DNA of 62,358 nt from Candidatus Thorarchaeota archaeon (GCA_050124975.1 JASFEF010000003.1:1-62358); one strand, 5' to 3'. Shown: positions 21,055-37,252, counted from the first letter of the stretch. Numbers and translations: made by a program. Notes: generated from the sequence alone by a model not told the origin.

Positions 21055-21690
21055 ATGCAACTGACTCCCTATAGCACTCTTCCACTTGTTATCATTGTTC
21101 ATGCGCTATTCTTACAGGGAGTCTGGCTTTACTTGGGTCGTCGTGCTAGGGACAGGTATCTAGGAGACATCATGCACTTCCGGAGCCCCTCATCCTCCAT
21201 GTCAAGATATTACAACTGGCGTGTTGCAGGATTCGCGAATGCATTGATAGAGGGGGTAGTCTTCTTGTCAATCTTGTTGATTTCACTAGTCCTACTATCA
21301 GTGGCAATAGCCAATCTTGAAACGTTCATGGCGGCGAACCTCTATGTTCTGTTTGTGATGTTTCTATCATTTATGAGCTCCATGCAGATGGCATGGCGTG
21401 TTAGGGAGATCAACCAACGTGAGAGCAACATATTGTCCTCACTTGGTGCATCGATTGACAAGATAGGAGTAGCGCGAGATATTGTTGAGAACCTCATGAT
21501 TCAGGGCTCGATGGGGGACGGAAGAGTATGGTTTGCACTCTATAGACTAGCTCAAAGACCAAATCAGGTCGGATGGGCAATAAGGGATGTATTGATAGAG
21601 AAAGGCAGAGAGATGAAGGAAATGTACAAGTACGAAACACGTGAGCCTGATTCAGCTGTGCGTGACAAAGGACCTGGAATTGAATCTTGA
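21055..21690 (+). CDS. Membrane protein, unknown function
   Basis: 211 aa. Three N-terminal hydrophobic helices and a soluble C-terminal domain. Confidence 0.5.
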   Translation: MQLTPYSTLPLVIIVHALFLQGVWLYLGRRARDRYLGDIMHFRSPSSSMSRYYNWRVAGFANALIEGVVFLSILLISLVLLSVAIANLETFMAANLYVLFVMFLSFMSSMQMAWRVREINQRESNILSSLGASIDKIGVARDIVENLMIQGSMGDGRVWFALYRLAQRPNQVGWAIRDVLIEKGREMKEMYKYETREPDSAVRDKGPGIES

Positions 21691-22213: not shown

Positions 22214-22630
22214 GTGGTGAGTGTGGAATCAGAGAAATTGTTGGCAAGTATCGGACTAGTAGTAGGCGTAGTTTTACTTGTTCTGGCAGGACTCTCAGTA
22301 GGAGGTTTTCCTCACAACTACACATTGATTCTCGTTGAACTCATTTTAGGAATCGTTTTCGTCGTATTGGTAATGGGAACTTTGTTGCCAGTACTTGCAA
22401 AAAGACCTGAGAATCGGAGGTCTGTGACTCTTGCCTTTCTTGGTATCATTGTAACAGTGTCTGGAGGAAATCTCCTGATATTCACACCTGTTTCAATAAT
22501 CGTCTTCCAATCCAGCTGGTGGGTTTTCACACTGACTGGTATGCTACTGTTCATCATCGGCATCTTTCTCATCTACAAGTATTGGTCTTACAGAGCAAGC
22601 TTAGAAGAGCAACTTGCTTCTGTCCATTAA
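22214..22630 (+). CDS. Membrane protein, unknown function
   Basis: 138 aa with four hydrophobic helices. Confidence 0.5.
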   Translation: MVSVESEKLLASIGLVVGVVLLVLAGLSVGGFPHNYTLILVELILGIVFVVLVMGTLLPVLAKRPENRRSVTLAFLGIIVTVSGGNLLIFTPVSIIVFQSSWWVFTLTGMLLFIIGIFLIYKYWSYRASLEEQLASVH

Positions 22631-22797: not shown

Positions 22798-23358
22798 ATG
22801 CTTCAGTGGTTGATGTATTTCTCAGCATATTTCTTTGCAGGACTTACACTGAAGCTCGGAGATGACTTACTTGACGAACTGGACCAGCCGAACGTGGCAT
22901 GGGTCCCACTGACTCTTGCCGGTCTTCTGTTCGGTCTCCTTATGACGGTTTCAGAGTGGGATTTGGTTCTCTTGACCAGTATCGTGATTGGAGTCCTAGT
23001 TTCAGGGAAGGTTAATCGTCCTCAATTCATTGTAGGCTTTGTACTGATTTTCAGTACACTATTCGTTCTCGGAATTCCAGTCATCACACGTTGGTTAGAC
23101 TGGTTGACTGTGCTCATCATTCTGTTCTTGGCGGCTGTTCTTGATGAGAAAGGTAATGATTGGACTGATAGAAACACGTTTCCTCTAGCCTACAAACTAT
23201 TTGAGCACAGGTTTGTCCTGAAGATAGTTGCACTCTGCCTAGTAATACCTTGGCCGATGTTTCTCTTCACAGCAATTGGACTTTGGATGTTTGATCTTGG
23301 ATACGAATTTGTAGGATGGTTGGTCAGACGAACATCAAGCAAGCGTCTTGTAAGCTAG
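22798..23358 (+). CDS. Membrane protein, unknown function
   Basis: 186 aa with 5-6 hydrophobic helices. Confidence 0.5.
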   Translation: MLQWLMYFSAYFFAGLTLKLGDDLLDELDQPNVAWVPLTLAGLLFGLLMTVSEWDLVLLTSIVIGVLVSGKVNRPQFIVGFVLIFSTLFVLGIPVITRWLDWLTVLIILFLAAVLDEKGNDWTDRNTFPLAYKLFEHRFVLKIVALCLVIPWPMFLFTAIGLWMFDLGYEFVGWLVRRTSSKRLVS

Positions 23359-24545: not shown

Positions 24546-25286
24546 ATGAAAGAAGCCAAGAAAATCTTCAAGACTGCTCTGAATGAAGGTAGAACCTTTG
24601 TCCTAGAGCATGAAGCAAAGGACATTATGAAGGCATACGGAATCCCTATACCGTCATATGCAACTGCCAGCACTCCTGATGAGGCAGTTGAGAAGTCAGA
24701 AGCAATAGGTTTCCCGGTTGTGCTCAAGATTCTATCAAAGGATATTCTGCATAAGTCAGATGCAGGAGGAGTGAAGATCAACCTGAAAGACGAAGATGCT
24801 GTTCGAAAGGCCTTTGATGAGATTATGGAGAATGCAAAGAAGTACGGAAAGGAAAAGGGAATCGAAGTAGACTTGAGCAGAGGTGTGTTCATCTCTGACT
24901 TCGCAGACATGGGAACAGAGATTATTGTGGGAGTCACAAAGGACCCACAGTTTGGTCATGCCCTTATGGCAGGTCTCGGCGGCATCTTTGTTGAAGTTCT
25001 CAAAGATGTGTCTTTCAGATTGATTCCATTCTCAGAAGCTGATGCTAGAGAGATGCTGAGTGAACTCAAAGCCTACAAGATTCTTGAAGGTGTAAGAGGT
25101 GAAGGTCCACGTGATGTAGACGCACTGATTAAAGTCATGCTAGCAGTGTCCAAGATGATTGAAGAGAATCCTGAGATAACAGAACTCGACTGTAACCCAA
25201 CCTTTGTGTATGAGAAAGGAAAAGGCGCTATTGTTGTTGATGCAAGAATTCTGATTGATGGGCCAGACAAAACTCCTAGTCACTAA
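24546..25286 (+). CDS. ADP-forming acetyl-CoA synthetase beta subunit-like ATP-grasp protein
   Basis: LEHEAKDIMKAYGIPIP...GFPVVLKILSKDILHKSDAGGVKINL is the ACD beta / ATP-grasp_5 signature. No alpha subunit in the window. Confidence 0.85.
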   Translation: MKEAKKIFKTALNEGRTFVLEHEAKDIMKAYGIPIPSYATASTPDEAVEKSEAIGFPVVLKILSKDILHKSDAGGVKINLKDEDAVRKAFDEIMENAKKYGKEKGIEVDLSRGVFISDFADMGTEIIVGVTKDPQFGHALMAGLGGIFVEVLKDVSFRLIPFSEADAREMLSELKAYKILEGVRGEGPRDVDALIKVMLAVSKMIEENPEITELDCNPTFVYEKGKGAIVVDARILIDGPDKTPSH

Positions 25287-26472
25287 TCAGATCATGAAGA
25301 AGAATTAGACCTCTCTTGAGATCGATGTCCTCCAACGGAGCTTCTTGTGAAGTCTTCGTAGCAGTAGCCAGAAGCAGCAGGAGTGCAATCAATCGAGGAA
25401 CAAGACGGGCATACTGAAGAAGGAAGTCTTTGTTTCCAGTTGAGTCTACAACTAGACCTTCAAGACGCCTTGTCACAAGCTGAATCCTCTCCTCAGCCCC
25501 CGGACCTAGTACGAGGCCTTGAAAGAGCTCCACTGCAGCTGTTTCGTTCTGAAGGAAGTCTGATGATACACCAATTTGCTCAAACATTTGCAAAGCACTG
25601 ATGATTATGGGATCATAATGTTCCTCTTCAAGCCGGTTTATCTCTTGCCTTACCGCCTGAAGTTGACCCAGAAATCGTAATGAGTTTGTCAATATGGTTC
25701 GCGAAGCACCAGAAGTAGCTGCAGCCATTCTAGCTAGATGTTCACCATGGACCTTCTCGAGACTTGAAGCAACTGACGCGTTCAGTTTTCTATCAAATCC
25801 AGGAGAGAATCCAACACTTGCTGCTCTTGGTAGAACAGAGTGTGATCCTAACCGACGAATCATAGTAAGTGCTTTGAAATCTTCACTTGGTACATAGAAG
25901 AAGAGTATTCGAAGAATATCGTATGCTGTTTCAAAGTCGTTCTCTACTATCACATTTCGGCCTTGTCCTTTGCAGGCGAACGCGCTTAGAATGGCCCATG
26001 AGGAAGCAATAGCTTCACTGAGTTCCTTCCTTTGAGTTTCATCTGCAACCTCATGTTCTTCAAGGAATCGAATCAATTTCTCTGAGGAGCCGGAAATCCT
26101 CTGGAGTGTGTTGGGTCCGAATTGCAAATCTACAACGGACTTGATGAAACCCCTTGGTTCTCGGGATGGTGGTCTTAAGACCAGACCTGGTTCTTTTCGT
26201 GTCATTGTCCACCATTTTGAAGTCGAAGTGAAGTAGTCAAGAAGGTCTATTGCTTCAGTGACATCTGAGAGAGTTGCTACATCTCTTGTTTCAAGATATG
26301 TCACAAGCTTCGTGAAAAGTTTGAGAAAGAGTGTTAGATGATCGGAAATCCTAGACCCCAGAAACTTAGCGTCTGTAAACCGTACTGCCACTGTATTGAT
26401 TTGGTCAGATATGTTGTCCTCTAGACGTGTCCTTAGCAAACCTCTGTAGACATCAACTGGAGTCCTTGCCAA
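25276..26472 (-). CDS. Hypothetical 398-aa predominantly helical protein
   Basis: Long uninterrupted ORF with coding-like composition. No motif recognised. Confidence 0.55.
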   Translation of the reverse strand: MARTPVDVYRGLLRTRLEDNISDQINTVAVRFTDAKFLGSRISDHLTLFLKLFTKLVTYLETRDVATLSDVTEAIDLLDYFTSTSKWWTMTRKEPGLVLRPPSREPRGFIKSVVDLQFGPNTLQRISGSSEKLIRFLEEHEVADETQRKELSEAIASSWAILSAFACKGQGRNVIVENDFETAYDILRILFFYVPSEDFKALTMIRRLGSHSVLPRAASVGFSPGFDRKLNASVASSLEKVHGEHLARMAAATSGASRTILTNSLRFLGQLQAVRQEINRLEEEHYDPIIISALQMFEQIGVSSDFLQNETAAVELFQGLVLGPGAEERIQLVTRRLEGLVVDSTGNKDFLLQYARLVPRLIALLLLLATATKTSQEAPLEDIDLKRGLILLHDLISD

Positions 26473-26534: not shown

Positions 26535-27311
26535 CTACTTGCCATATCTTCTAGAGCGGGCTCCATAGGAACGTAAAGCGCGCCATATGTCAATCCGTCG
26601 AACGGCAGGCCAGTAGATTTGTGCGAAGTAGAGTTCAGAATATGCAGACTGCCATAATAGAAATCCAGAGAGTCGTTCCTCACCGGATGTACGTATAATG
26701 AGGTCAGGATCAGGAATACCATTTGTGTAAAGGTGACCCTCTATGATGCCCTCGTTAATCTGTGAGGGTTCCAATTCACCAGACTCTATCTTTTCACCGA
26801 TTGCTTTCACAGCATCGACTAATTCAGCGCGACCAGAGTATCCAATAGCTACATTGAGAATATGGTCATCGTATTCCTTTGTTTCTTCTTCAGCTTCTCG
26901 GATCGCTTTCCGAACTCTCTCGGGTAGAAGGTCGACTCTTCCAATGGCCTGTATACGAACACGATGACGGTGAACATCAGGGTTTCCAACTACTTCACCA
27001 AACTTTTCCTCGGCGAGAGCCATAATCTCTTCAACTTCATCTTCGTTTCTCTCGAAGTTTTCGATGGAGAAAGCATACAATGTGCATACTTTGACATTTG
27101 CCTCCCACAGAATTCGCAGGACCTCCATCACTTTGGCTGCACCGCGGTGATGCCCAAACCATGGGACCTCAAGCCCATGTTTTCTCGCGTATCGACGGTT
27201 TCCATCTAAAATGATACCTACATGTCGTGGGGCTCTATCCTTGTCTAACTGTCTGAAAAGAAAGTATTCGTATAGTCTGTACATAGGACCGGATAGGTTC
27301 AACTCTAACAC
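26535..27311 (-). CDS. uppS: cis-Prenyltransferase (undecaprenyl diphosphate synthase family)
   Basis: HVGIILDGNRRYARKHG and the RTSGEERLSGFLLWQSAYSELYF motifs. Confidence 0.92.
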   Translation of the reverse strand: MLELNLSGPMYRLYEYFLFRQLDKDRAPRHVGIILDGNRRYARKHGLEVPWFGHHRGAAKVMEVLRILWEANVKVCTLYAFSIENFERNEDEVEEIMALAEEKFGEVVGNPDVHRHRVRIQAIGRVDLLPERVRKAIREAEEETKEYDDHILNVAIGYSGRAELVDAVKAIGEKIESGELEPSQINEGIIEGHLYTNGIPDPDLIIRTSGEERLSGFLLWQSAYSELYFAQIYWPAVRRIDIWRALRSYGARSRRYGK

Positions 27312-27375: not shown

Positions 27376-27747
27376 CTAGATCATTTTCGAAATCTTCTCT
27401 GCAGCACGTTTCATATCTAAGAATATGAGACCTAGTTTTGCGTTTGCAGTAGTGGAAACAGTCAGACACGCATTGATTCCAGCAGCAGTGACCAACAGCC
27501 AGCCATCGATTCCCTTGACATTGACTTGCTCAAGGTTCCCCTTTCCGAGCTCTATCGCTGCTCTCTCGCCAAGACTCAGCATAGCGGCAGTCATTGCGGC
27601 AACCTTTGCCTCATCTACATCAGTGGGAAGAGCTGATACGATTGGTAACCCTTCTACACTGACTATAGCGCAGGCTTCAATCTCTGGAATGCTCCCCTGC
27701 AGTTCATTCAGAACACCTTCGAGAGTATCTTCGCGGGTTTCTGCCAT
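27376..27747 (-). CDS. Roadblock/LC7 domain protein (MglB-like)
   Basis: The alpha-beta-beta-alpha-beta-beta-alpha pattern is visible in ACAIVSVEGLPIVSALP...VAAMTAAMLSLGERAAIELGKGNLEQVNVKGIDGWLLVTAAG...LGLIFLDMKRA. Its start is 13 nt after the GTPase stop, with an AGGTGAG SD. Confidence 0.85.
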   Translation of the reverse strand: MAETREDTLEGVLNELQGSIPEIEACAIVSVEGLPIVSALPTDVDEAKVAAMTAAMLSLGERAAIELGKGNLEQVNVKGIDGWLLVTAAGINACLTVSTTANAKLGLIFLDMKRAAEKISKMI

Positions 27748-27760
27748 TTGGTCTCACCTG

Positions 27761-28333
27761 TCATTTGTACATTCTTTTCAGGATGACTTCTCTTGCTATT
27801 GCTTGAAATGCCCTCTTAACTCCTACGCCCTGTACAGCAATGGTTTCATAGATGGGTACATTCCCACCTAGGCCTAGGAGATCAAGCATTTCATCTCGTG
27901 ACATCCTGTTTGGTAGGTCTCGCTTGTTAAGCATGACCACTATTGGAATCTCACGCCCAAGGGCATCACCGAGGAACAACTTCAGCTCCTCAAAGCTCTC
28001 TGTGTTCTCATCACGCTGGTCTGGTGAGGAGTCGGCAACAAAGAGAATTCCGTCGGTACCCTGTAGGACTACCTTCCTCTGATGTCTATGTCTCTTCTGT
28101 CCAGCCACAGTAAAGACGTCGAACAGAACTCTGCCGCCAGCACTCATGGGCACGTAGTCAAAAAACAGCGTACGATTGGTCTCATCCTCGATTGCAGTGA
28201 ACTCGCCTTTCTGTAGTCCTTCGACTTTTCCATAAAGCCAACGGAGAGCAGTTGTCTTACCACCCAGGGACGGGCCATAGAATACTAGTTTGAGATGAAT
28301 GCGTCCCTTGTCGTCTTTTCGAATTGTAAACAC
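27761..28333 (-). CDS. MglA-family small Ras-like GTPase
   Basis: G1 YGPSLGGKTT. Switch I NRTLFFDYVP. MglA-specific G3 FTVAGQ, with Thr in place of the canonical Asp. G4 NKRD. G5-region GVGV. Collinear with Myxococcus MglA as I recall it. Confidence 0.85.
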   Translation of the reverse strand: MFTIRKDDKGRIHLKLVFYGPSLGGKTTALRWLYGKVEGLQKGEFTAIEDETNRTLFFDYVPMSAGGRVLFDVFTVAGQKRHRHQRKVVLQGTDGILFVADSSPDQRDENTESFEELKLFLGDALGREIPIVVMLNKRDLPNRMSRDEMLDLLGLGGNVPIYETIAVQGVGVKRAFQAIAREVILKRMYK

Positions 28334-28582
28334 CTCGTCGTGTCACTGCAGAGGTCCCTGTAATGGGATGTTGATTGAAAGAAAAGTTCTGTCTAATAAA
28401 AGCCTTTGTGGCACCGAAGGGTGCTTCTGGACGGCATTGTTGCTAGATTGGACTCCTCAATTCAATACACACTGAGTAGTGGAATGCCAGACGTAGATAC
28501 AACTGTATGTGTTATGTTTGTTTTGACTCACTCAAATTGGATATTGTGGAAATTCCAAATCATTATCACCGTTCGAGAGAGG

Positions 28583-28948
28583 ATGAATGCAGAGGGAAAC
28601 CATTTGACTGAAGAACAGGAACATAAGACCTGTCCATCCTGTGGGGAGATGATGGAGGAGGGGTATCTCATTAGCAAGATGGGTGTTTACTGGGATGATC
28701 ATGTCCCAAGATTTGTCGCACCAGGCACACTCCTATCACCCAATACAACAGAGGTTTTCAAGATGCATTACGTTCACTCGTACAGGTGTCGATTCTGTAA
28801 AATCATTCAATATGGAGAACCATCTGATTTTGTGCGATTTGCATGTCCACACTGTGAGGCAAAATATGAGTATGAGATTCCAAAAGACACTGATCAGATT
28901 GTCTGTCAGAACTGCGCCAAGAAATTCTCCAGAACTAATATTCACTAA
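28583..28948 (+). CDS. Double zinc-ribbon protein
   Basis: CPSCG...CRFC followed by CPHCE...CQNC. ATG at 28583 is preceded by GAGAGAGG. The upstream part of ORF 28406-28948 looks non-coding. Confidence 0.6.
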   Translation: MNAEGNHLTEEQEHKTCPSCGEMMEEGYLISKMGVYWDDHVPRFVAPGTLLSPNTTEVFKMHYVHSYRCRFCKIIQYGEPSDFVRFACPHCEAKYEYEIPKDTDQIVCQNCAKKFSRTNIH

Positions 28949-28985: not shown

Positions 28986-29478
28986 TCAAACTCTTTCTAG
29001 TTCAGCTAGGGCTGACTTCAGGTCCTCTTCGTCAAGCTCGCTTTCCTTCGGAGATAGCGGTTCCACCGCAAGGAACTTGTCGAGCTCATCAGCCAGTTGC
29101 ACACCTTGTTTCTTCATCACAAGTCGGATCAGACCGATGTTGACCTCTGCCTCTGAAACCACACACAGTACACCTTTCCCACAGGCTGAGGCGAAGATTT
29201 TGCCCTCTGAGAACTCAGAAGTGACTATCTCAAGCTCCCCAATCTGCAGGTTCTTGCCCTGCTCCTCACTTGCACAGAAGACCGCACTGGCGATAGCTCC
29301 AATTGAGTCGACGTCTACTGGGTAGTAGGACAGCTTGGACACGTTTGCGATGGTCAATCCCGTTTTAGACGGCTTGTAGAAATTACTTGCCTTTGTCTAC
29401 GAGAATGACCTTCTTGATGCCCTTGTCCTGTCTGATAATTTCCGTGAGGATCTTATCGAAGGCTTTTGGATCACTCAT
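28986..29478 (-). pseudogene. Roadblock/LC7 gene split by a +1 frame change (or a recoded gene)
   Basis: ATG at 29478 (SD GAGGTG) encodes MSDPKAFDKILTEIIRQDKGIKKVILVDKGK, then TAA at 29383-29385. This is helix 1 and strand 1 of a Roadblock fold. The rest of the domain (IGAIASAVFCASEEQGKNLQIGELEIVTSEF...VLCVVSEAEVNIGLIRLVMKK) is in the +1 frame, open from 29396 to 28986. Confidence 0.6.
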
Positions 29479-29504: not shown

Positions 29505-29804
29505 CTACTGAGTGTTCTTAAGGACTACTAGGATGAGTCCTTCTTTCACTTCCGGTGCGATGTTAATCTGACCTTTGGTTGTATCCAAGGTCAGGAACGA
29601 CAGCGACCCCTCTTGAAGTTCTCGCACTGCGTCTAGTGCTTTTCCCACAAGGGAGGTGATTATCGCAGCGACGTTCTCTGTAGTTTCGGGGTCTAGATCA
29701 CTACTGAGTGGTAGACCATCCATGTTGGTCACAACAATTCCTCGTACTCCTTCCTGTTCTTTTATTTTGGAAAGAATCCCTTGAAGTTTTTCTTGACTAA
29801 TCAA
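29505..29804 (-). CDS. Roadblock/LC7 domain protein
   Basis: LQGILSKIKEQEGVRGIVVTNMDGLPLSS...VAAIITSLVGKALDAVRELQEGSLSFLTLDTTKGQINIAP...LILVVL. A TTG at 29804 with GAGGAC 8 nt upstream is preferred over the Cys-rich extension to 30020. Confidence 0.75.
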   Translation of the reverse strand: MISQEKLQGILSKIKEQEGVRGIVVTNMDGLPLSSDLDPETTENVAAIITSLVGKALDAVRELQEGSLSFLTLDTTKGQINIAPEVKEGLILVVLKNTQ

Positions 29805-29929
29805 CGTACAGAGTCCTCGCTGATTCAACTGTGTCGTATCATCTACGCCGCAGTTGACTATTTTAGACTTGTGGAGATATGTTACCAGTCCACAGGCATC
29901 ATTTGCGCATTTGGAGAATATTTGGGGTT

Positions 29930-29978
29930 GTGTTACATAGAAAAAGAGGTTGGTCGTGCTCGAAAAACACGCACGACC
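29930..29978 (-). terminator. Hairpin plus T-tract downstream of the vWA gene
   Basis: A perfect 8-bp stem (29952-29959 with 29971-29978) and an 11-nt loop lie 25 nt after the stop at 30004. On the minus strand this is followed by AACCTCTTTTTCT. Confidence 0.45.
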
Positions 29979-30003
29979 GTTGAACGTAATATCAGAGCTA
30001 TAC

Positions 30004-31620
30004 TCATTCTTTGTCTTCAAAGAGCTTCTTAGAACTTCGTTTGCTCTGAGCGAGGCTTCCAGTGAAGGCTTCGTCTGCAGCTCCCGAGGGTGCTGATGCA
30101 GGAGCGGCTTCTAGCATCTCCTCTTGACGAGCAATCTCCTCTTCTTCATCGTTCAGAACATTGTCAGTCTTGTCTAACATTGCTTGAACGGCTTTGGGAG
30201 CTCCTTTCGCCTTGGTCTTCAGAGCCTTTCTGAATTTAGCTATTCGCTTTCGACCGCCCGCTCTGTCACCACGGAATGACTCTTCACCAGCCTTTTGTGT
30301 CACGAATGTGGCACCGACAGTAGGATCAAGGGTTTCCATGATCTCATCCTCCTTCTTGGAAACCTTGAGCTTGGTGGTTACAGCACGGACCCTTCGGGCA
30401 CCTTCCTCATCAGTGTAGGTCACTTGGACCTGTATGGGAACCTCAGGCTCTTTGATTTCCTTTTCAGGTTCGACCTCAAAGTAGAGCTCGTGGTCTTCGC
30501 CAACAACTCCAATCTTGCTCTCGCTAGACTTCTTCAATTGGTCCACAACAGCTCTTGAAACTCCAGATGCATCTTTGACCTTCACACCAGGTGGGGTGAT
30601 TAGACGAACCTCCACATCCCTACCAAGGAGCGATGCTCCGGCAAGTTCTGAGAGGCTTCTGTCAAGCTCGTTGGGCGTGACGTAATACATCTGACCGCCC
30701 GTGGCTTCTGGTAAGAGTCCCAAGGTCTGAAGCTCCATGCCTGCTCTGGACGCAATACCAACGACATCAACTGCTGTACCTAGTTCCATGAACATCTTTC
30801 CAAGGTCTTCATAGTACTTGCTCGCGGGAGTGACTTGGTATCCCTCAAGAGCGCCAATTCCCTCATTGGCAAGTCCGTCTGTAAGAAGAACCACTCTTCC
30901 GACATTTCGATGCTTGGCAATGACAAAGGCCATCCCTACAGCAGGTCCTAGAGCCGTGCCGCCTTGATCACGGAGTGCCTGAACATGCTTCTTCAGCCTG
31001 TCCTTGTTCTTGCCCACGCCTATCAACTTGATATTGTCAAGGAGCTTCTTCGTGGAGTTCATGATATCCTTCAAGCTTGCAAAGGATTCTCTAGGAAGCT
31101 CAACGGGATTTCCATTCTCAAGATTTCTAGCCACAACAGAACTCTCAAACTCTATCAAACCGAACATTGTGTCAGGTGCATTTGCAGCAAGACTGTCAAT
31201 AGATGTGTTTAGACTGCGTTTTACAGCAGCTAAGTTTGCTCCGGCCATTGATCCCGAAACATCAATGAGTCCTAGGAAGGACATACCGCCAACAGCAATC
31301 GCCTCTGTAGCGGTTTCTGGATCTGGGGGTGCTTCGATAACGAAATCCGTGTCGTCACCTGCTACCACAATCTCCCCCTCAATTACATTCAGAGTTCCGC
31401 AGAACGGGCATACAAAGTGCTTGCCCACCTTTGGGTCCTCTTCGATTTGGTCCACACTAAGGAGAAAGCCATTGCACTTGTGGCAGGCGATTGGCTTTCC
31501 TACAATCTTTGTTGTTTCATGCGCAAGATGACCAAATTCTACACGCAAGACATATGGAATGTCGCTCAGGACCTTCTTCGAAGCCGGAAAAGCTTCTGAG
31601 CTAGTTCTCAACATAGGCAT
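30004..31620 (-). CDS. Zinc-ribbon + von Willebrand A (MIDAS) + beta-rich domain protein with a charged disordered tail. Sec23/24-like domain order.
   Basis: Zinc ribbon CHKCN-x22-CPFCG. vWA with complete MIDAS (DVSGSM, GGTALG, LLTDGLAN). Then VDVVGIAS...LQTLGLLPEATGGQMYYV and a beta-rich segment (RDVEVRLITPPGVKVKDASG...IQVQVTYTDEEG). The last ~100 aa are K/E/A-rich. Confidence 0.85.
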   Translation of the reverse strand: MPMLRTSSEAFPASKKVLSDIPYVLRVEFGHLAHETTKIVGKPIACHKCNGFLLSVDQIEEDPKVGKHFVCPFCGTLNVIEGEIVVAGDDTDFVIEAPPDPETATEAIAVGGMSFLGLIDVSGSMAGANLAAVKRSLNTSIDSLAANAPDTMFGLIEFESSVVARNLENGNPVELPRESFASLKDIMNSTKKLLDNIKLIGVGKNKDRLKKHVQALRDQGGTALGPAVGMAFVIAKHRNVGRVVLLTDGLANEGIGALEGYQVTPASKYYEDLGKMFMELGTAVDVVGIASRAGMELQTLGLLPEATGGQMYYVTPNELDRSLSELAGASLLGRDVEVRLITPPGVKVKDASGVSRAVVDQLKKSSESKIGVVGEDHELYFEVEPEKEIKEPEVPIQVQVTYTDEEGARRVRAVTTKLKVSKKEDEIMETLDPTVGATFVTQKAGEESFRGDRAGGRKRIAKFRKALKTKAKGAPKAVQAMLDKTDNVLNDEEEEIARQEEMLEAAPASAPSGAADEAFTGSLAQSKRSSKKLFEDKE

Positions 31621-31813: not shown

Positions 31814-32176
31814 ATGGCTGATCAAGCAAAGATTGAACAAGTTGTACAGGAAACGATGGCTGCGAACGCAGATCTCGAAGGCATTGTCATATGTGATGCC
31901 AAAGGAAATGTAGTATTTGGGCATACTATAAGCGGGGGAACAAAGCATGCAGATGTGTCGAATCTTGCTGTGAAGATAGCAGCTAATTCTTCTCAGCTTT
32001 CGGCTGGTCTGGATAAGGGAGGTCTGAAGGAAGTCAGTATTGCATCAGACAACGGTTTCATTATAATCCTCGGCGACGTAAAACTTGTACTGGCAGGAAT
32101 CGCAGGCGAAGGCGCAAGAGAGTCATTAGGGCTTCTTAGGATGGCTCTGAGAAGAGCACTCTTGCAGATTGTTTGA
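31814..32176 (+). CDS. Roadblock/LC7 domain protein
   Basis: LEGIVICDAKGNVVFGHT...SNLAVKIAANSSQLSAGLDKGGLKEVSIASDNGFIIILGDVKLVLAGIAG...LGLLRMALRRA. Strong SD AAGGGAGGAAAA. Confidence 0.85.
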   Translation: MADQAKIEQVVQETMAANADLEGIVICDAKGNVVFGHTISGGTKHADVSNLAVKIAANSSQLSAGLDKGGLKEVSIASDNGFIIILGDVKLVLAGIAGEGARESLGLLRMALRRALLQIV

Positions 32177-32377: not shown

Positions 32378-35300
32378 TTGGTTCACATTGAGAAGCTTGT
32401 ATGCAAAGGCTTCAAATCATTCGGACGAGATTCAGTCAGTATCAAGCTCAACCAAGGATTCACCTGCATTGTTGGACCAAATGGATCCGGTAAATCCAAT
32501 GTTGTTGATGCTATTCTTTTTGTACTTGGGCAACTGAGTGCAAAAACTCTACGTGCCAATGTGTTCTCAGATTTACTTTATTCTCCACCAAAGCCCAATA
32601 TGCCTCCAAAGGCCAAGTCTGCTCATGTAGAACTCCATTTCAACAACAAAGACAGGAAGCTGCAGATTGATGCAGACAGGGTGGTGATTGAGAGGCAGTT
32701 AGATGATTCAGGAAAGTCTGTGTGTCGAATCAATGGGAAAGTTGTGACCCGTGCTGCAGTGTTGGATGTATTAGGCGCCATTGGGGTCGACCCTAATGGA
32801 TACAACCTTGTTCTTCAGGGCGAGATTGCTCAGATGGTCAAGGTTAGCCCAAGTGAGCGAAGAAAACTGATTGAGGAGATTGCAGGAATATCGGCATATG
32901 ATGAGCAGAAAGATCGTGCTCTGAAGAAACTAGCTGAGAGTGAAACTAACCTAGGAAAGGTCGACATGCAACTCCAGGAACGGCGTCGTCATCTTGAGAA
33001 ACTGGAAGAGGACATGTCGGATGCCCGTAGATATCAGAATCTCCACGAACAGATACGAAAACACAGGGTCGACATTCTCGCATGGAGTACCATCAAGGGA
33101 AGATCACGGATAGAAACGATTAACGAAACTTTGGCACAGCGCGCTGAAGAGGCAGAGAGTCTTGTCAAGGAGTTAGTAGAAGTAGAAACTGGTGTTGAAG
33201 GAACGGACACAGAGATTGAGAAGATAGACCATGATATCGATCAGATCACTGGCGGAGACTCAACCAGGGTATCAGAGCAGTATGGTATAGTATCTGCGGC
33301 TGTGACTCATGTTAAGGGAGACTTGGACAGAGCTCAGGCAGAGTTTGACAGGGCAAATGGTGAAAAAACAGCCCTAAAAGAAGAACTCGAAACTGTTCAG
33401 GATGAAATCAGTCACAATGAACAAATCTTGACTGACAAAACAAATGAACTCACTTCTCTAGAAAAGGAGATGGCGGCTACAACTGCAGAGATTATTCGAT
33501 TAGAGGAGATGTCAGAGAAAGCACAAACGGCATACTATGAAACGACACTACGCCTACAGGATTTGAACAACCAGATGAGGCACTTGGATGAGGGTGTTTC
33601 TGAAATTCGATCAACGATTAAATCTGACAACAGAGAGCTTGGACTAGCTTATGAGGAACTCAGAGATGCAACTGAGAGTCTTGAGAAGGCTGAAGCGGAG
33701 ATTTCACAGTTAAAGGAAACAATTCCTGAAAAGAAAACCGAGTTTGGAAGATCTGAAGAACTTGAAAAGACCAAGCAGGCTGAAATCGACAGTCTGACAA
33801 AACAACTCTCGACTGTGGATGCGGAAGTTGTAGAGAGTGCGAAAATAGTATCCCAGACCAGAGAAGAGCTGATTAAGGTACAAGCTCGTCAAGAAGCCTT
33901 GAAAGAAGCAGAGGATGCTTTTCTAAAACGCCGCCGTGCGATTGCCACAGTCTTAGAGCTGAGAGATGCTGGTGCTATAAGTGGAATCCACGGGACTGTA
34001 GCAGAACTGGGAACAATTGACCCAGATTATGCAGTAGCGTTAGAGATCGCTGGGGGAAATAGGCTCTCCCATATTGTAGTTGAGAATGAGCAGGTTGCGA
34101 CAGAATGTGTCAATGTCTTGAAGAGTGAGAAAGTTGGTAGGGCGTCCTTTATTCCGCTTGACAAAATCAAGACAAGTGCTCCAGGAAAACTACCCAAAGA
34201 TGATGGTGTTGTTGACTTTGCACTTAACCTTGTCAAGTTTGATCCAAAAATGCGACCAGCTTTCGAGTTTGTATTCTCAGATACAATTGTGACTGAAGAT
34301 TTCGATACTGCAAAGCGACAAGGATTCCGGGGCCAGAGAGCTGTTTCTCTTGACGGAGACCTCATAGAACGCTCCGGTCTAATGACTGGGGGTTATTTCC
34401 AGAAGACCACGGCTGGTCTATCATTGCAGGTGGAAGACACCAGTCCTGAAATTGCAGAGCGTCTTCAAGGCTTAGAACAGATACTGACCGACCTTCGCAG
34501 CAAACAAGACTCTCTTAGAAAAGAGCGGTCAGACCATGAAAAAGAGGTGCAAGGTCTCTCAAAGACAAACTATAGGCTCCGTATGGAGCTAGAGAGAATC
34601 GAAGAGCGATTCGAGGATCAAAAAACTAGGGCGGAGATTCTGCAAGAGAGAATAGACAAGGCCAATCTCACCATAAGCGAGCTCGAAACTCAGGTAAAGG
34701 AACTTCAAGAGCGGGATGAAGAGCTCACTGTTCAGCGTGAGCGGGTAAGAGCTCAACGTGATGAGGCTAACGAAATCTTGGCTACATCTGATGCAAACAA
34801 GCTCAATCAGGAAATCAAGGACCTGAAGGAAGTACAGGAACAATACAACAGACAGAGGGAAAAACTGCAGGCTGAGATAACCTCAGTGAGAGTCGCGCTT
34901 GATGAGCGACTCGGACCCAAGGCGATTGACATAGAATCCAAGATCCAGTCTCAAGATGCCATAATTCCAGGTCTTGAGGAGGAAGTGAAACGACTACAGA
35001 TGGGACTCTCAGAGAGAGAGAGCGAGTTCGACAAGCTCAAGGAAGAGAGAGAGAAAATCGATGAAGCTGTCAAGGATAAACGGGTTCGTCAACTTGAGCT
35101 GAAGGAGGATCTTCGAAACCTGAGGCTGAAACACGAGGAAATACGTGAGGCACAGACATCGAATGAAAAGGCAGTTTACCGACTCCAGACTGAACAGAAC
35201 AGACTCGAAACTGATATCGTTGCCTATGTAGCTGAACTGAACACGGTGGCAGAGGCTCAAGTGGCTCTTGAAGAGAGAGAAGAAGAACGAGAACTTACCT

Positions 35301-35968
35301 ACAAGGAACTTGAAGAACTTGAAGATAAGATCAAAGAGATTGAGAGAGAACTCGAAGCTATGGGACCTGTCAATCTGAAATCACTCACGGACTATGACAT
35401 GGAAAAAGACCGGTATGAGGAGATTGTTGACAAGAAGACTCGCCTTGAAGATGAACGGAGAGAGATTCTGGTCTTCATGGAAGAGCTTGAGGCGGAAAAG
35501 ACACAGAAGTTCCTCACGGTCTACAACGAGATTGCTGACAACTTTGCTACAGTATTTGCACAGCTATCACCAGAGGGTGAAGCTAACCTTATGCTTGAGA
35601 ACCCCGAACATCCTCTAATGGGAGGAATCACCGTCAGATCAAAACCTCGAGGAAAAGAACTCGTTACTCTTGATGCCATGAGCGGTGGAGAGAAAACCCT
35701 TACAGGGCTTGCGCTCATCTTTGCAATTCAAATGTATAGTCCTGCTAGCTTTTACATTTTTGATGAAATAGATGCAGCTCTTGACAATGTCAACGCCCAT
35801 AATGTAGCACTCCTCATTTCGGAGATGTCAAAGAATTCACAGTTTGTAGTTGTATCACTCAGGGACACCACAGTTCGAAAGGCTGATTTGCTGGTGGGAA
35901 TATCAAACCAGGATGGAATCTCTAGAATTGTTTCAGTTGATTTGGAGGAGGTTGGTGCATCAGCATGA
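32378..35968 (+). CDS. smc: Chromosome segregation protein SMC
   Basis: 1196 aa. N-terminal Walker A GPNGSGKSN, long coiled coils, a hinge (GIHGTVAELG...), and C-terminal signature LSGGEKTL with Walker B FYIFDEIDAALD. Confidence 0.95.
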   Translation: MVHIEKLVCKGFKSFGRDSVSIKLNQGFTCIVGPNGSGKSNVVDAILFVLGQLSAKTLRANVFSDLLYSPPKPNMPPKAKSAHVELHFNNKDRKLQIDADRVVIERQLDDSGKSVCRINGKVVTRAAVLDVLGAIGVDPNGYNLVLQGEIAQMVKVSPSERRKLIEEIAGISAYDEQKDRALKKLAESETNLGKVDMQLQERRRHLEKLEEDMSDARRYQNLHEQIRKHRVDILAWSTIKGRSRIETINETLAQRAEEAESLVKELVEVETGVEGTDTEIEKIDHDIDQITGGDSTRVSEQYGIVSAAVTHVKGDLDRAQAEFDRANGEKTALKEELETVQDEISHNEQILTDKTNELTSLEKEMAATTAEIIRLEEMSEKAQTAYYETTLRLQDLNNQMRHLDEGVSEIRSTIKSDNRELGLAYEELRDATESLEKAEAEISQLKETIPEKKTEFGRSEELEKTKQAEIDSLTKQLSTVDAEVVESAKIVSQTREELIKVQARQEALKEAEDAFLKRRRAIATVLELRDAGAISGIHGTVAELGTIDPDYAVALEIAGGNRLSHIVVENEQVATECVNVLKSEKVGRASFIPLDKIKTSAPGKLPKDDGVVDFALNLVKFDPKMRPAFEFVFSDTIVTEDFDTAKRQGFRGQRAVSLDGDLIERSGLMTGGYFQKTTAGLSLQVEDTSPEIAERLQGLEQILTDLRSKQDSLRKERSDHEKEVQGLSKTNYRLRMELERIEERFEDQKTRAEILQERIDKANLTISELETQVKELQERDEELTVQRERVRAQRDEANEILATSDANKLNQEIKDLKEVQEQYNRQREKLQAEITSVRVALDERLGPKAIDIESKIQSQDAIIPGLEEEVKRLQMGLSERESEFDKLKEEREKIDEAVKDKRVRQLELKEDLRNLRLKHEEIREAQTSNEKAVYRLQTEQNRLETDIVAYVAELNTVAEAQVALEEREEERELTYKELEELEDKIKEIERELEAMGPVNLKSLTDYDMEKDRYEEIVDKKTRLEDERREILVFMEELEAEKTQKFLTVYNEIADNFATVFAQLSPEGEANLMLENPEHPLMGGITVRSKPRGKELVTLDAMSGGEKTLTGLALIFAIQMYSPASFYIFDEIDAALDNVNAHNVALLISEMSKNSQFVVVSLRDTTVRKADLLVGISNQDGISRIVSVDLEEVGASA

Positions 35969-36687
35969 TGGATGACGATTCTCCTTTCTGGGCGACGCCA
36001 CCCTACATACTTCTCACTGATGTCCTTCAGCTAGATAAAGTTGAACCTTGGAATGTTGATGTGGGAAAACTTGTCGTAGGCTTCCTTGATGAGATGAAAA
36101 GACTTGGTGACATCGACTTTCGCATATCAGGCAATGCATTGTATTCGGCATCAGTGATTTTCATGAGAAAGACCAGAGAACTAGTTGAACTCGGTCTCTT
36201 GCCACCAGACGAGGAGGAAGAGGACGGGGATTTGGTCATTCCACTAATTCGTCCTCCATTCAGACTAACAAATCGACGTGTGACTCTTGAAGAGTTACTC
36301 GTAGCCATGGATCATGTCCTCAGTAAGGGTGTTAGACAACGTTCTACACCTACAAAACGGAAATACAGCGTTAAAGCAGACCCTTTGACATTCCAGATGA
36401 ACATTGGCCGAGCCAACATTGAGGAAACAATTGCTGAGGTCTATGGGGACCTCTGTAGAATCATGAAGATCGGTGATGTTTCGAAGTTCATTGATGTGCT
36501 CATGAACAATACTAGACGAGAGATTGTACGTGTATTCTTCTCACTGTTGTTCCTTTTTGGAAGAGCATTCATTGACCTTTGGATGGATGATGAGGGGGTC
36601 ATCTGGATCAAACTTCTGGAACCACCTGAGGTTACTGATGAGGAGGAGACTCCTGAGGAGGAGATTCAACCAGAGATTGAAGCCTAG
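35965..36687 (+). CDS. scpA: Segregation and condensation protein A (kleisin)
   Basis: ATGA overlap with the smc stop. Size and position match scpA in archaeal smc-scpA-scpB operons. It has an acidic C-terminus and a winged-helix-like C-terminal segment. Confidence 0.8.
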   Translation: MMDDDSPFWATPPYILLTDVLQLDKVEPWNVDVGKLVVGFLDEMKRLGDIDFRISGNALYSASVIFMRKTRELVELGLLPPDEEEEDGDLVIPLIRPPFRLTNRRVTLEELLVAMDHVLSKGVRQRSTPTKRKYSVKADPLTFQMNIGRANIEETIAEVYGDLCRIMKIGDVSKFIDVLMNNTRREIVRVFFSLLFLFGRAFIDLWMDDEGVIWIKLLEPPEVTDEEETPEEEIQPEIEA

Positions 36688-36697
36688 GGTGATAGTA

Positions 36698-37252
36698 TTG
36701 AATGAGGATATGATTACGCTAGAAGCAGCCCTCTACGTTTCAGGTAGAGCGCTGACTCTGGAGGAGCTAGCAGACATCATTGGAAAATCTCAATCAACTG
36801 CTCAGAAGATACTTGACGAGTTAAGCTTCGAGTACAACAAACGAGAAGGGGCTTTAGAAGTAGTGGCTCTACCAAAGGACCGGTATGTAATGCAGCTCAA
36901 ACCAGAACTCACACCCAGGGTTGGAAAACTGATACCTGGAGGCCTCCTGTCCTTCGCGACTCTTCAAACATTGGTCTTTATTGCCCTCAAACAACCAATC
37001 ATGCAGTCAGATCTTGTTGCCCAACGGGGCACTCATTCTTACGATCACATTAGAGATTTGGTTGACAAGAAGTTCGTTGATGCTGTTCCTGAAGGTCGTT
37101 CCAAGCTTTTGACAACAACTCAGCTGTTTGCAGATTACTTCGGTCTTGATAATGACCGTGTCAAACTCAAAGCCCAACTCAAGTTCAAAATGAAGAAGAT
37201 TCTTGAAGACCAGCGCGAGGTGGAAGAGGCTGCTGGACTGGCTCCAAGCTAG
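36698..37252 (+). CDS. scpB: Segregation and condensation protein B
   Basis: LEAALYVSGRALTLEELADIIG... and a second winged helix (LQTLVFIALKQPIMQSDL) are typical of ScpB. TTG at 36698 is preceded by GGTGAT at 4-nt spacing. ATG at 36710 is an alternative start. Confidence 0.85.
   Translation: MNEDMITLEAALYVSGRALTLEELADIIGKSQSTAQKILDELSFEYNKREGALEVVALPKDRYVMQLKPELTPRVGKLIPGGLLSFATLQTLVFIALKQPIMQSDLVAQRGTHSYDHIRDLVDKKFVDAVPEGRSKLLTTTQLFADYFGLDNDRVKLKAQLKFKMKKILEDQREVEEAAGLAPS

Follow-up and report, generated by a model that had tools for sequence, protein, structure and literature searches.

Sec23 and Sec24 form the inner layer of the COPII (coat protein complex II) coat, and the origin of vesicle coats is central to eukaryogenesis. 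Asgard archaea carry a family of Sec23/24-like proteins, which was reportedly first flagged by Zaremba-Niedzwiedzka et al. in 2017. This study concerns one such gene, located at positions 30004-31620 on the (-) strand of a 62,358-nt stretch of DNA from Candidatus Thorarchaeota archaeon (GCA_050124975.1, JASFEF010000003.1:1-62358; hereafter the window), and the protein of 538 aa that it encodes.

Several described systems stand close to this protein. COPII Sec23/24-related proteins are named in reviews among the eukaryotic signature proteins of Asgard archaea (PMC8382908; 10.1101/2024.02.28.582541), and structural models of Asgard Sec23-like proteins contain all Sec23 domains but gelsolin, have Sec23 as their Foldseek match, and are without the residues that contact Sar1, the gelsolin domain being the one with the catalytic residue and some of the Sar1 contact surface (PMC11914678; Nat Commun 2025). 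In Sulfolobus, ArnB combines a von Willebrand factor A (vWA) domain that has a MIDAS (metal ion-dependent adhesion site) with a beta-sandwich and a helical part, and binds the zinc ribbon of ArnA (PMC12852372). In eukaryotes, the cpRAS-VWA family of Elias and Novotny (2008) joins a circularly permuted Ras domain to a vWA domain that is annotated as a Sec23/24 trunk and may be preceded by a four-cysteine finger; relatives without the cpRAS domain were recorded in Dictyostelium, Entamoeba, some metazoans and ciliates, the family also occurs in excavates, and its function was given as unknown (PMC2430557).

The window protein is no new family but the published Thorarchaeota/Asgard Sec23/24-like protein: it is 91% identical over 100% of its length to P0026, 'SEC24 family transport protein [Ca. 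Thorarchaeota archaeon SMTZ1-45]', and identity stays at 81% or more throughout the 120 closest database clusters (81-96% to the other 119 listed representatives), those with names coming from Thorarchaeota/Promethearchaeota metagenome-assembled genomes (MAGs). Since structure prediction and Foldseek comparison had been carried out on Asgard relatives (PMC11914678), the corresponding results given here largely reproduce published ones for this orthologue. Three details seem to be undescribed in the searchable literature, namely, the conserved MIDAS with its TDGxANxGxG motif, the affinity to cpRAS-VWA proteins, and a Roadblock/MglA gene block in Thorarchaeota. Taken together, and judged from sequence and predicted structure, they suggest that this Sec23/24-like family member is, somewhat more probably than not, a GTPase-coupled, metal-dependent adaptor that would be neither a GTPase-activating protein (GAP) for Sar1/Arf nor a complete coat subunit, with Sec23 and Sec24 as possible derived forms.

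Domain layout and likeness to Sec23/Sec24

The gene and the parts of its product are as follows.

30004..31620, (-) strand: complete Sec23/24-like coding sequence, 538 aa, called as an open reading frame (ORF) with an ATG start, stop codon (30004-30006) included
31501..31620, (-) strand: N-terminal beta strands, residues 1-40 (strands 4-6, 10-12, 23-28 and 37-40 by DSSP on the AlphaFold2 model, local confidence (pLDDT) ~83-95)
31381..31494, (-) strand: Cys4 zinc ribbon, residues 43-80 (C46, C49, C71, C74), from cysteine positions, conservation and profile alignment
30631..31284, (-) strand: vWA or Sec23/24 'trunk' domain, residues 113-330, from Pfam and an alternating beta/alpha fold in the model
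30358..30630, (-) strand: beta-sandwich domain, residues 331-421, from Pfam (Sec23_BS) and an all-beta model
30007..30357, (-) strand: C-terminal helical domain, residues 422-538, with five helices between residues 424 and 535 in the model, pLDDT mostly >90

The architecture is that of Sec23/Sec24 minus the C-terminal gelsolin domain: strands, Cys4 ribbon, vWA trunk, beta-sandwich and helices follow one another in a single soluble chain. Two of these parts exceed their Pfam gathering thresholds, i.e., Sec23_trunk (PF04811; 41.7 bits, threshold 27, E=1.3e-10, residues 115-315) and Sec23_BS (PF08033; 36.3 bits, threshold 33.5, E=9e-9, residues 335-421), and the VWA and VWA_2 models also match the trunk region. 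In the AlphaFold2 model the sandwich consists of strands 331-341, 346-352, 367-374, 378-385, 393-403 and 409-421, in line with the beta-rich segment noted in the first-pass annotation, which had been made from the DNA alone. That annotation had also placed FLGLIDVSGSMAG, MFGLIEFESSVVARNL, VVLLTDGLAN, VDVVGIAS and LPEATGGQMYYV in the protein, and all of them are found in the translation.

The zinc ribbon contains the only four cysteines of the protein. Their spacing is C-x2-C-x21-C-x2-C, so that the Cys4 set was called correctly at first reading and its central x22 interval was one residue too long. The cysteines are invariant in 30 Asgard/Entamoeba homologues and are present in ~94-97 of the 109 rows of a wider alignment, the other rows being gaps. 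The best zinc-finger model is zf-Sec23_Sec24 (PF04810), at 17 bits and E=0.0062, below the Pfam threshold of 25; P0162, one of the eukaryote-tier relatives described below, scores 27.1 bits on the same model. At the other end of the chain, the first-pass annotation had seen a charged, low-complexity tail of ~100 aa. Charged it is (A 16%, K 12% and E 11% over the C-terminal ~110 residues), but the region is a folded and conserved domain of five confidently modelled helices, which eukaryotic relatives conserve to about residue 530. It ends in a basic, Ser/Lys-rich stretch (SKRSSKKLF) that is similar in many homologues, although no column there is marked as conserved. Pfam searches of the 538-aa protein gave no match to Sec23_helical (PF04815) at E<=1 and none to gelsolin, the chain stopping at residue 538 after the helices; no GTPase, catalytic or transmembrane domain was among the matches.

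Searches of the Protein Data Bank (PDB) extend the likeness over most of the chain. With the single sequence, the best matches were all to Sec24, at scores of at most 23.7 bits. A family profile made from the 30-sequence alignment of Asgard/Entamoeba homologues, which also served as AlphaFold2 input, gave a single collinear match to yeast Sec24 that covers profile positions 41-469 (E=8e-25, 90.7 bits), and it matched Sec23A at 1.5e-10; the zinc ribbon aligned to the Sec24 zinc finger, the yeast alignment ended inside the region modelled as helical, and generic vWA proteins ranked lower with short matches. The alignment to human Sec24A spans profile positions 7-458 and takes in the N-terminal strands from position 7 onwards; by analogy with Sec23/24, the strands of residues 1-40 probably contribute to the beta-barrel/sandwich. 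The GLI-x-F and TGG patterns that the first-pass annotation had likened to Sec23/24 recur in the single-sequence alignments to PDB entries: human Sec24C has PQLTGGSVY opposite PEATGGQMY of the window protein, and Toxoplasma Sec24 has TMVGIVTYDSAV opposite MFGLIEFESSV.

The AlphaFold2 model reached a pLDDT of 89.6 and a global confidence (pTM) of 0.89, with disorder restricted to residues 102-111. In a Foldseek search of the PDB with this model, the top 46 matches were all Sec23 or Sec24 (E 4e-31 to 1e-21, query TM-score (TMq) 0.63-0.75). The next were a Catenulispora vWA protein (4FX5) and Sulfolobus ArnAB (8S05), both at TMq 0.49 and E=4e-15 to 7e-17, much below Sec23/24. Trunk, beta-sandwich and overall fold thus support membership in the Sec23/24 superfamily, and the Sec23/24-like domain order proposed at first reading is borne out by the two Pfam domains, the collinear Sec24 profile match and the Foldseek ranking.

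These results bear on two other readings of the fold. The first is that of a generic prokaryotic vWA/MIDAS protein (TerY-, BatA-, ChlD-, CoxE- or YegL-like, or a defence/MoxR component) whose likeness to Sec23/24 reflects only the common vWA fold. Database copies bear names such as 'VWA domain-containing protein', 'uncharacterized protein YegL' and 'Mg-chelatase subunit ChlD', and bacterial vWA loci (L032-L080) match weakly (E 4e-8 to 3e-4), most of them within the vWA part. Against this stand the Sec23-specific beta-sandwich above its Pfam threshold, a Sec24 profile alignment that runs through zinc finger, trunk, sandwich and helices, and the placement of generic structures below all 46 Sec23/24 entries in Foldseek. 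Searches for a defence system or a named prokaryotic family gave no PADLOC match and an NCBIfam match far below threshold only, so that no NCBIfam family could be assigned, and no MoxR ATPase was found among the Pfam-scanned neighbouring genes. Pfam, profile and Foldseek results, all of which lead to Sec23/24 and not to generic bacterial vWA families only, effectively refute this reading, and we regard it as highly improbable.

The second is that of an ArnB-type, phosphorylation-controlled vWA switch for the expression of surface-structure or motility genes, comparable to Sulfolobus ArnA/ArnB, with the zinc finger in cis. The domain layout of ArnB and its binding of the ArnA ribbon (PMC12852372) would fit, as would the Foldseek match to the ArnAB structure 8S05 (E=4e-15), a profile match to 8s05_A at 1e-12, and the recurring basic Ser/Lys-rich C-terminus, in which a conserved column is lacking. 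The model is nevertheless farther from ArnB (TMq 0.49) than from Sec23/24 (0.63-0.75), the profile match to ArnB is limited to positions 109-172, and no gene for an FHA protein, a kinase or a PP2A/PP2C phosphatase lies within ~12 kb; Roadblock proteins, MglA, a UPP synthase, SMC/ScpB and housekeeping enzymes are encoded there instead. An ArnB-type role is therefore considered unlikely.

A strictly conserved MIDAS

Within the trunk, the following positions make up the putative metal site and the motif around its last aspartate.

31249..31263, (-) strand: MIDAS motif 1, D120-V-S122-G-S124, invariant wherever the alignment column is occupied
30955-30957, (-) strand: MIDAS T222 (in GGTALGP), invariant in homologues
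30877-30879, (-) strand: MIDAS D248 (in LLTDGLAN), invariant in homologues
30853-30888, (-) strand: family-specific LLTDGLANEGIG motif, residues 245-256, from conservation in the 109-sequence alignment

The first-pass annotation had called the MIDAS triad intact and different in this from Sec23/24, and both statements hold. D120, S122, S124, T222 and D248 are invariant in the 30 Asgard/Entamoeba homologues and in 108 further representatives. In the wider alignment T222, T247, D248, G249, N252 and G256 are unchanged in 109 of 109 sequences, and the four cysteines, DxSGS, T222, D248 and TDGxANxGxG are invariant at all occupied columns. Yeast Sec24 keeps DVSQS and the threonine, but in the profile alignment SGT (within SGTLPNLGIG) stands opposite the TDG of the family, from which it follows that the last MIDAS aspartate was lost in the coat protein.

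Generally, vWA domains that have a MIDAS bind their partners via a divalent cation, which holds on to an acidic side chain or carboxylate. The intact and strictly conserved site of the Asgard proteins probably binds a divalent metal and, through the metal ion, a ligand. Such a functional-looking site is not captured by a description of these proteins as a Sec23 that is not yet functional.

Affinity to the eukaryotic cpRAS-VWA family

A search of 1.84 billion representative sequences yielded 950 relatives at E<=1e-3, of which 46 were at E<=1e-30, and they fall into two tiers. Proteins of the first tier are ~500-565 aa long, 27-69% identical and collinear over their full length; those with names derive from Thor-, Hermod-, Hod- and "Prometh"-archaeota, the Hermod-, Hod- and Promethearchaeota-labelled homologues being 24-69% identical and likewise collinear throughout. 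Genome scans add MAGs labelled Freya-, Jord- and Odin- to the family, the Freya and Jord loci being collinear. By a pattern scan, which could miss diverged paralogues, each chromosome-scale Asgard record (L010, L023, L028) holds one locus.

Second-tier proteins are mostly 580-950 aa long, and their matches usually begin around residue 129 and often continue past residue 500 to ~530. All 16 organism-named proteins in this tier are eukaryotic. Among the sources are the sea urchin Diadema and the starfish Acanthaster ("circularly permutated Ras protein 1-like"), the mollusc Batillaria, an acanthoecid choanoflagellate, Heterostelium, Entamoeba, Pyxidicula, Platysulcus, Cantina, Chrysoparadoxa and a cercozoan. 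Two metagenome proteins bear only the names "Mg-chelatase subunit ChlD" and "hypothetical protein", and a prokaryotic origin is possible for some of the unnamed members. P0178 (584 aa), for example, is carried by metagenome contigs as long as 136 kb and may be prokaryotic, so that this 'eukaryotic tier' may hold archaeal sequences.

The second-tier proteins make up the cpRAS-VWA family described by Elias and Novotny (PMC2430557). A cpRAS domain was matched in 20 of the 108 representatives of this tier (19 at E<=1e-12) and thus defines a subfamily rather than the whole cpRAS-VWA/VWFA family. With the single window sequence, phmmer gave ~91-129 bits to eukaryote-tier representatives, the named cpRAS proteins of Diadema and Acanthaster included. 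A hidden Markov model built only from Asgard sequences scored 164-377 bits (median 232) against eukaryote-tier proteins vs 87.5 bits against a yeast Sec24 fragment reaching from zinc finger to helical domain. When rooted on this fragment, a rough neighbour-joining tree had the Asgard clade as monophyletic (100/100) and as sister to a monophyletic eukaryotic clade (82/100), with the eukaryotes not nested in Asgard; as a distance method with one long outgroup branch, the tree is indicative only. These comparisons suggest that the closest eukaryotic sequence relatives of the Asgard proteins are the cpRAS-VWA/VWFA family and not Sec23/24. The 'precursor-like' form ascribed to the window protein at first reading is an evolutionary interpretation, and its sequence is much closer to eukaryotic cpRAS-VWA proteins than to Sec23/24.

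No paper joining Asgard Sec23-like proteins with vWA/MIDAS or cpRAS-VWA families was found in the searchable literature, nor one on the invariant MIDAS, the cpRAS-VWA link or a Thorarchaeota-wide Roadblock/MglA synteny, absence from the library being no proof of novelty. An evolutionary scenario that would account for the affinity is put forward tentatively, at somewhat less than even chances: the Asgard proteins, rather than being just an unfinished Sec23, would correspond in archaea to a distinct eukaryotic family of zinc-finger/MIDAS-vWA/beta-sandwich/helical proteins that still exists, was present in the last eukaryotic common ancestor (LECA) and includes cpRAS-VWA. The ancestral metal-dependent, ligand-binding module would have been coupled to a small GTPase, in trans via Roadblock/MglA or Ras-like neighbours in Asgard and in cis via cpRAS in eukaryotes, with Sec23/24 derived from it through loss of the MIDAS aspartate and acquisition of gelsolin. 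If this is true, cpRAS-VWA proteins would be, among living eukaryotes, the best model of how the pre-COPII module functioned. The cpRAS-VWA/VWFA proteins span opisthokont, amoebozoan, stramenopile and rhizarian taxa, with the same module fused to a GTPase in a subset of them.

Roadblock and small GTPase genes next to the Sec23/24-like gene

The genes that accompany the Sec23/24-like gene in Thorarchaeota are listed below as they occur in the window.

31814..32176, (+) strand: RoblD, divergent Roadblock-like gene upstream of the Sec23/24-like gene (Robl_LC7 17.9 bits, sub-threshold), at the same position in all Thorarchaeota loci
29505..29798, (-) strand: RoblA, short Roadblock/LC7 protein directly downstream (Pfam Robl_LC7 58 bits; LAMTOR5 30 bits, above threshold)
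28986..29357, (-) strand: RoblB, divergent Roadblock protein (Robl_LC7 22.8 bits and MAPKK1_Int 19.5 bits, both sub-threshold), also from conserved synteny
27761-28333, (-) strand: MglA-type small GTPase (134 bits to Myxococcus/Thermus MglA; TVAGQ as G3 motif)
27376-27747, (-) strand: RoblC, MglB-like Roadblock protein (Robl_LC7 60 bits; 90 bits to 7f8m)

RoblA is of the short RBLC7 type, with PDB matches to 7f8f (89.5 bits) and to the eukaryotic dynein light chain roadblock (52 bits). A listed ORF of 171 aa (29505-30020, (-) strand) runs over the stop codon of the Sec23/24-like gene only because the first TTG was taken as its start, and is an artefact; the Roadblock domain occupies its residues 77-171, and the real RoblA has ~97-100 aa with an uncertain start. 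For RoblB, the PDB matches were weak ones to LAMTOR2 and Roadblock proteins. The neighbouring GTPase was also considered as Arf/Sar-like on the basis of a Pfam Arf match, which was rejected given the 134 bits to MglA vs ~45 bits to Arf and the TVAGQ motif.

These genes are arranged in the same way in each Thorarchaeota locus with sufficient flank, including those in which the Sec23/24-like protein is as little as 56% identical: RoblD points away from a row of Sec23/24L, RoblA, RoblB, a variable insert, MglA and RoblC. RoblA adjoins the Sec23/24-like gene in each of these loci, and the two may be functionally associated. In other Thorarchaeota loci the RoblB frame lies within ~12 nt of the RoblA frame or overlaps it. 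MglA lies directly upstream of RoblC, and this pair (GTPase E ~1e-117 to 1e-127) is kept even where the Sec23/24-like protein falls to 56% identity.

Outside Thorarchaeota the surroundings differ. A family-wide Roadblock/GTPase synteny was considered and rejected, as it is absent from Hermod-, Odin-labelled, Freya- and Jord-archaeal loci: the Hermod- and Odin-labelled ones have a PadR regulator and an iron-dependent alcohol dehydrogenase or acyl-CoA-dehydrogenase-like gene as neighbours, and the Freya- and Jord-archaeal ones unrelated genes. In another Asgard lineage, loci L025 (6171-6734) and L027 (6718-7233) carry a Ras-family (Rab-like) GTPase gene ~1 kb upstream on the same strand (Pfam Ras ~152 bits); a small beta-flower-like ORF lies between it and the Sec23/24-like gene in L025, and the related locus L026 is without the GTPase. 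The association with GTPase/Roadblock genes is thus kept within one class and recurs in another form elsewhere, and is not universal.

Proposed function

Coupling of the adaptor to a GTPase is proposed because of three observations: the adjacency to Roadblock and MglA genes in Thorarchaeota, the Ras-family neighbour in L025/L027, and the cpRAS fusion in eukaryotes. These lines are independent of one another but individually weak, and the pairing of Sec23/24 with Sar1 may add a precedent by analogy. In the mechanism envisaged, a partner or cargo protein would be held through an acidic side chain or carboxylate by Mg2+ or Mn2+ in the MIDAS, and the adaptor would work jointly with switch modules made of small GTPases and Roadblock proteins. 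As the protein has no gelsolin domain, a GAP activity of the Sec23 type is unlikely, and among the products of neighbouring genes it would be the MglB-like Roadblock protein that serves as GAP. The ancestral form would persist in the Asgard protein and in eukaryotic cpRAS-VWA/VWFA proteins, and Sec23/24 would be paralogues derived from it by loss of the last MIDAS aspartate and by gain of gelsolin.

The same homology could be read as that of a proto-COPII inner-coat subunit, which a Sar1/Arf-like GTPase recruits to membranes and whose polymerisation or choice of cargo buds vesicles. The four-domain collinear homology and the fold held in common with Sec23/24 agree with such a role, as does the finding that Asgard Arf-related GTPases associate with membranes and that the binding of one such GTPase to yeast Sec23 depends on GTP (PMC11914678). 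It is, however, difficult to reconcile with the absence of the gelsolin domain, to which the catalytic residue and a portion of the interface with Sar1 belong, and with the weak, nucleotide-independent binding between Asgard Sec23-like proteins and an Asgard Arf in the same report (PMC11914678). The GTPase encoded nearby is of the MglA and not the Arf/Sar type, the MIDAS is intact, unlike that of the coat proteins, and the single locus per chromosome-scale Asgard record (L010, L023, L028) makes no heterodimer of the Sec23/Sec24 type evident, within the limits of a scan that could miss diverged paralogues. A coat role is thus regarded as improbable, slightly more so than the ArnB-type switch.

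Several points also weigh against the GTPase-coupled adaptor that we favour. Similarity scores are no phylogeny, and Sec23/24 may simply have evolved faster than the cpRAS-VWA proteins. The conservation of the MIDAS speaks of a constraint on the site, and the identity of a ligand is not given by it. The Roadblock/MglA synteny is confined to Thorarchaeota and could reflect phylogenetic inertia; moreover, Asgard genomes are very rich in small GTPases and Roadblock proteins (PMC10933270; 10.1101/2020.10.19.343400), an abundance that makes chance adjacency plausible. The apparent own terminator of the gene and an opposite-strand ORF, both described below, imply that there is no single operon. Lastly, three Asgard Sec23-like proteins expressed in yeast showed only weak, nucleotide-independent co-precipitation with one Asgard Arf (PMC11914678), which argues against effector behaviour of the Arf/Sar1 type and is silent on partners of the MglA or Ras type. 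For a protein without Arf-effector behaviour in published tests, the conserved MIDAS, the cpRAS-VWA affinity and the Roadblock/MglA cluster provide testable partners.

Intergenic elements and remaining neighbours

Downstream of the gene and further out, the window holds the following features.

29941..29978, (-) strand: hairpin (29952-29978) and T-tract (~29941-29947), 26 nt past the stop codon, by RNA folding
29902-29912, (-) strand: intergenic motif AAATGCGCAAA, after an AAATATT-like box, between the hairpin and RoblA
28406-28948, (+) strand: double zinc-ribbon/DUF6487 ORF, opposite strand, between RoblB and MglA
26535-27311, (-) strand: UPP synthase gene, downstream and on the same strand as the Sec23/24-like gene
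32378-37252, (+) strand: SMC gene (1196 aa), an ORF of 240 aa without Pfam match, possibly ScpA/kleisin, then ScpB
21055-21690, 22214-22630 and 22798-23358, (+) strand, and 25276-26472, (-) strand: ORFs of 138-398 aa without Pfam match at E<=1e-4

The first-pass annotation had given the gene its own hairpin/T-tract terminator. Both parts of the element are present, i.e., a hairpin GGUCGUGC...GCACGACC followed by CUCUUUUU (-22.1 kcal/mol, z=-2.85 vs shuffles), and its role as a terminator is inferred. A simple terminator scan passed over it, as the T-run begins >2 nt past the stem. Archaeal termination is usually credited to T-tracts alone, which makes a bacterial-style hairpin worth noting here. 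A hairpin followed by a T-rich tract occurs 3' of the orthologue in ~13 of 18 Thorarchaeota loci (3-60 nt past the stop in L001-L013, L021 and L024), and this recurrence makes the element look selected. The stem sequences differ completely between lineages, so that structure is kept and sequence is not. AAATGCGCAAA lies ~85-95 nt past the stop of the orthologue in most Thorarchaeota loci and may be a promoter or regulatory site of RoblA; with at most one mismatch it has two matches in the window, which is not above chance, and the evidence is its positional conservation.

The DUF6487 ORF is also found at the equivalent position in L001 and L004 and is absent from the other Thorarchaeota loci. 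Inserts of 0.1-4 kb occupy the interval between RoblB and MglA in other Thorarchaeota genomes, which makes this place a local insertion hotspot. One operon reaching from Sec23/24L to MglA was considered and rejected on account of the hairpin/T-tract after the gene, the opposite-strand ORF and the variable inserts. On the other side of the block, SMC, the 240-aa ORF and ScpB resemble a condensin operon; they are oriented divergently from the Roadblock/Sec23/24-like block, and their synteny extends to all Thorarchaeota loci.

Comparison with known systems

Among described systems, the Asgard Sec23/24-like proteins (PMC11914678; SMTZ1-45) have the same domain set without gelsolin and the same Sec23 match in Foldseek; together with the 91% full-length identity this leaves no substantive difference, and the window protein is effectively the same protein as that of SMTZ1-45. 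Sulfolobus ArnB/ArnE (8S05, 'ArnAB complex, an archaeal ortholog of the Sec23/24 core motif') likewise combines a vWA domain that has a MIDAS with a beta-sandwich and C-terminal helices, and a zinc ribbon packs on its sandwich (PMC12852372). There, however, ArnA supplies the zinc finger in trans, and kinase/FHA phospho-signalling drives the system, whereas the Thorarchaeota finger is in cis and no FHA or kinase gene lies within ~12 kb.

Sec24 and Sec23 (PDB 1M2V, 1M2O, 3EH1, 2NUT and others) resemble the archaeal protein in the collinear order of zinc finger, vWA trunk, beta-sandwich and helical domains and in the local motifs G-[LI]-[IV]-x-[FY] and TGG. The archaeal protein differs from them in being ~200 residues shorter, in a sequence identity of 14-18%, in zinc-finger and helical regions that stay below the Pfam model thresholds, in the absence of gelsolin and hence of the Sec23-type catalytic and Sar1-contact module, and in an intact MIDAS, where yeast Sec24 has SGT instead of TDG. 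The cpRAS-VWA/VWFA proteins of eukaryotes differ in their N-terminal part: most have an extension of up to ~500 residues, and about 19 of 108 have a circularly permuted Ras domain there, which is absent from the 538-aa Asgard protein. They, too, are without gelsolin, and they have the Cys4 set, the MIDAS and TDGxANxGxG in common with the Asgard protein, at 22-31% identity in the alignment.

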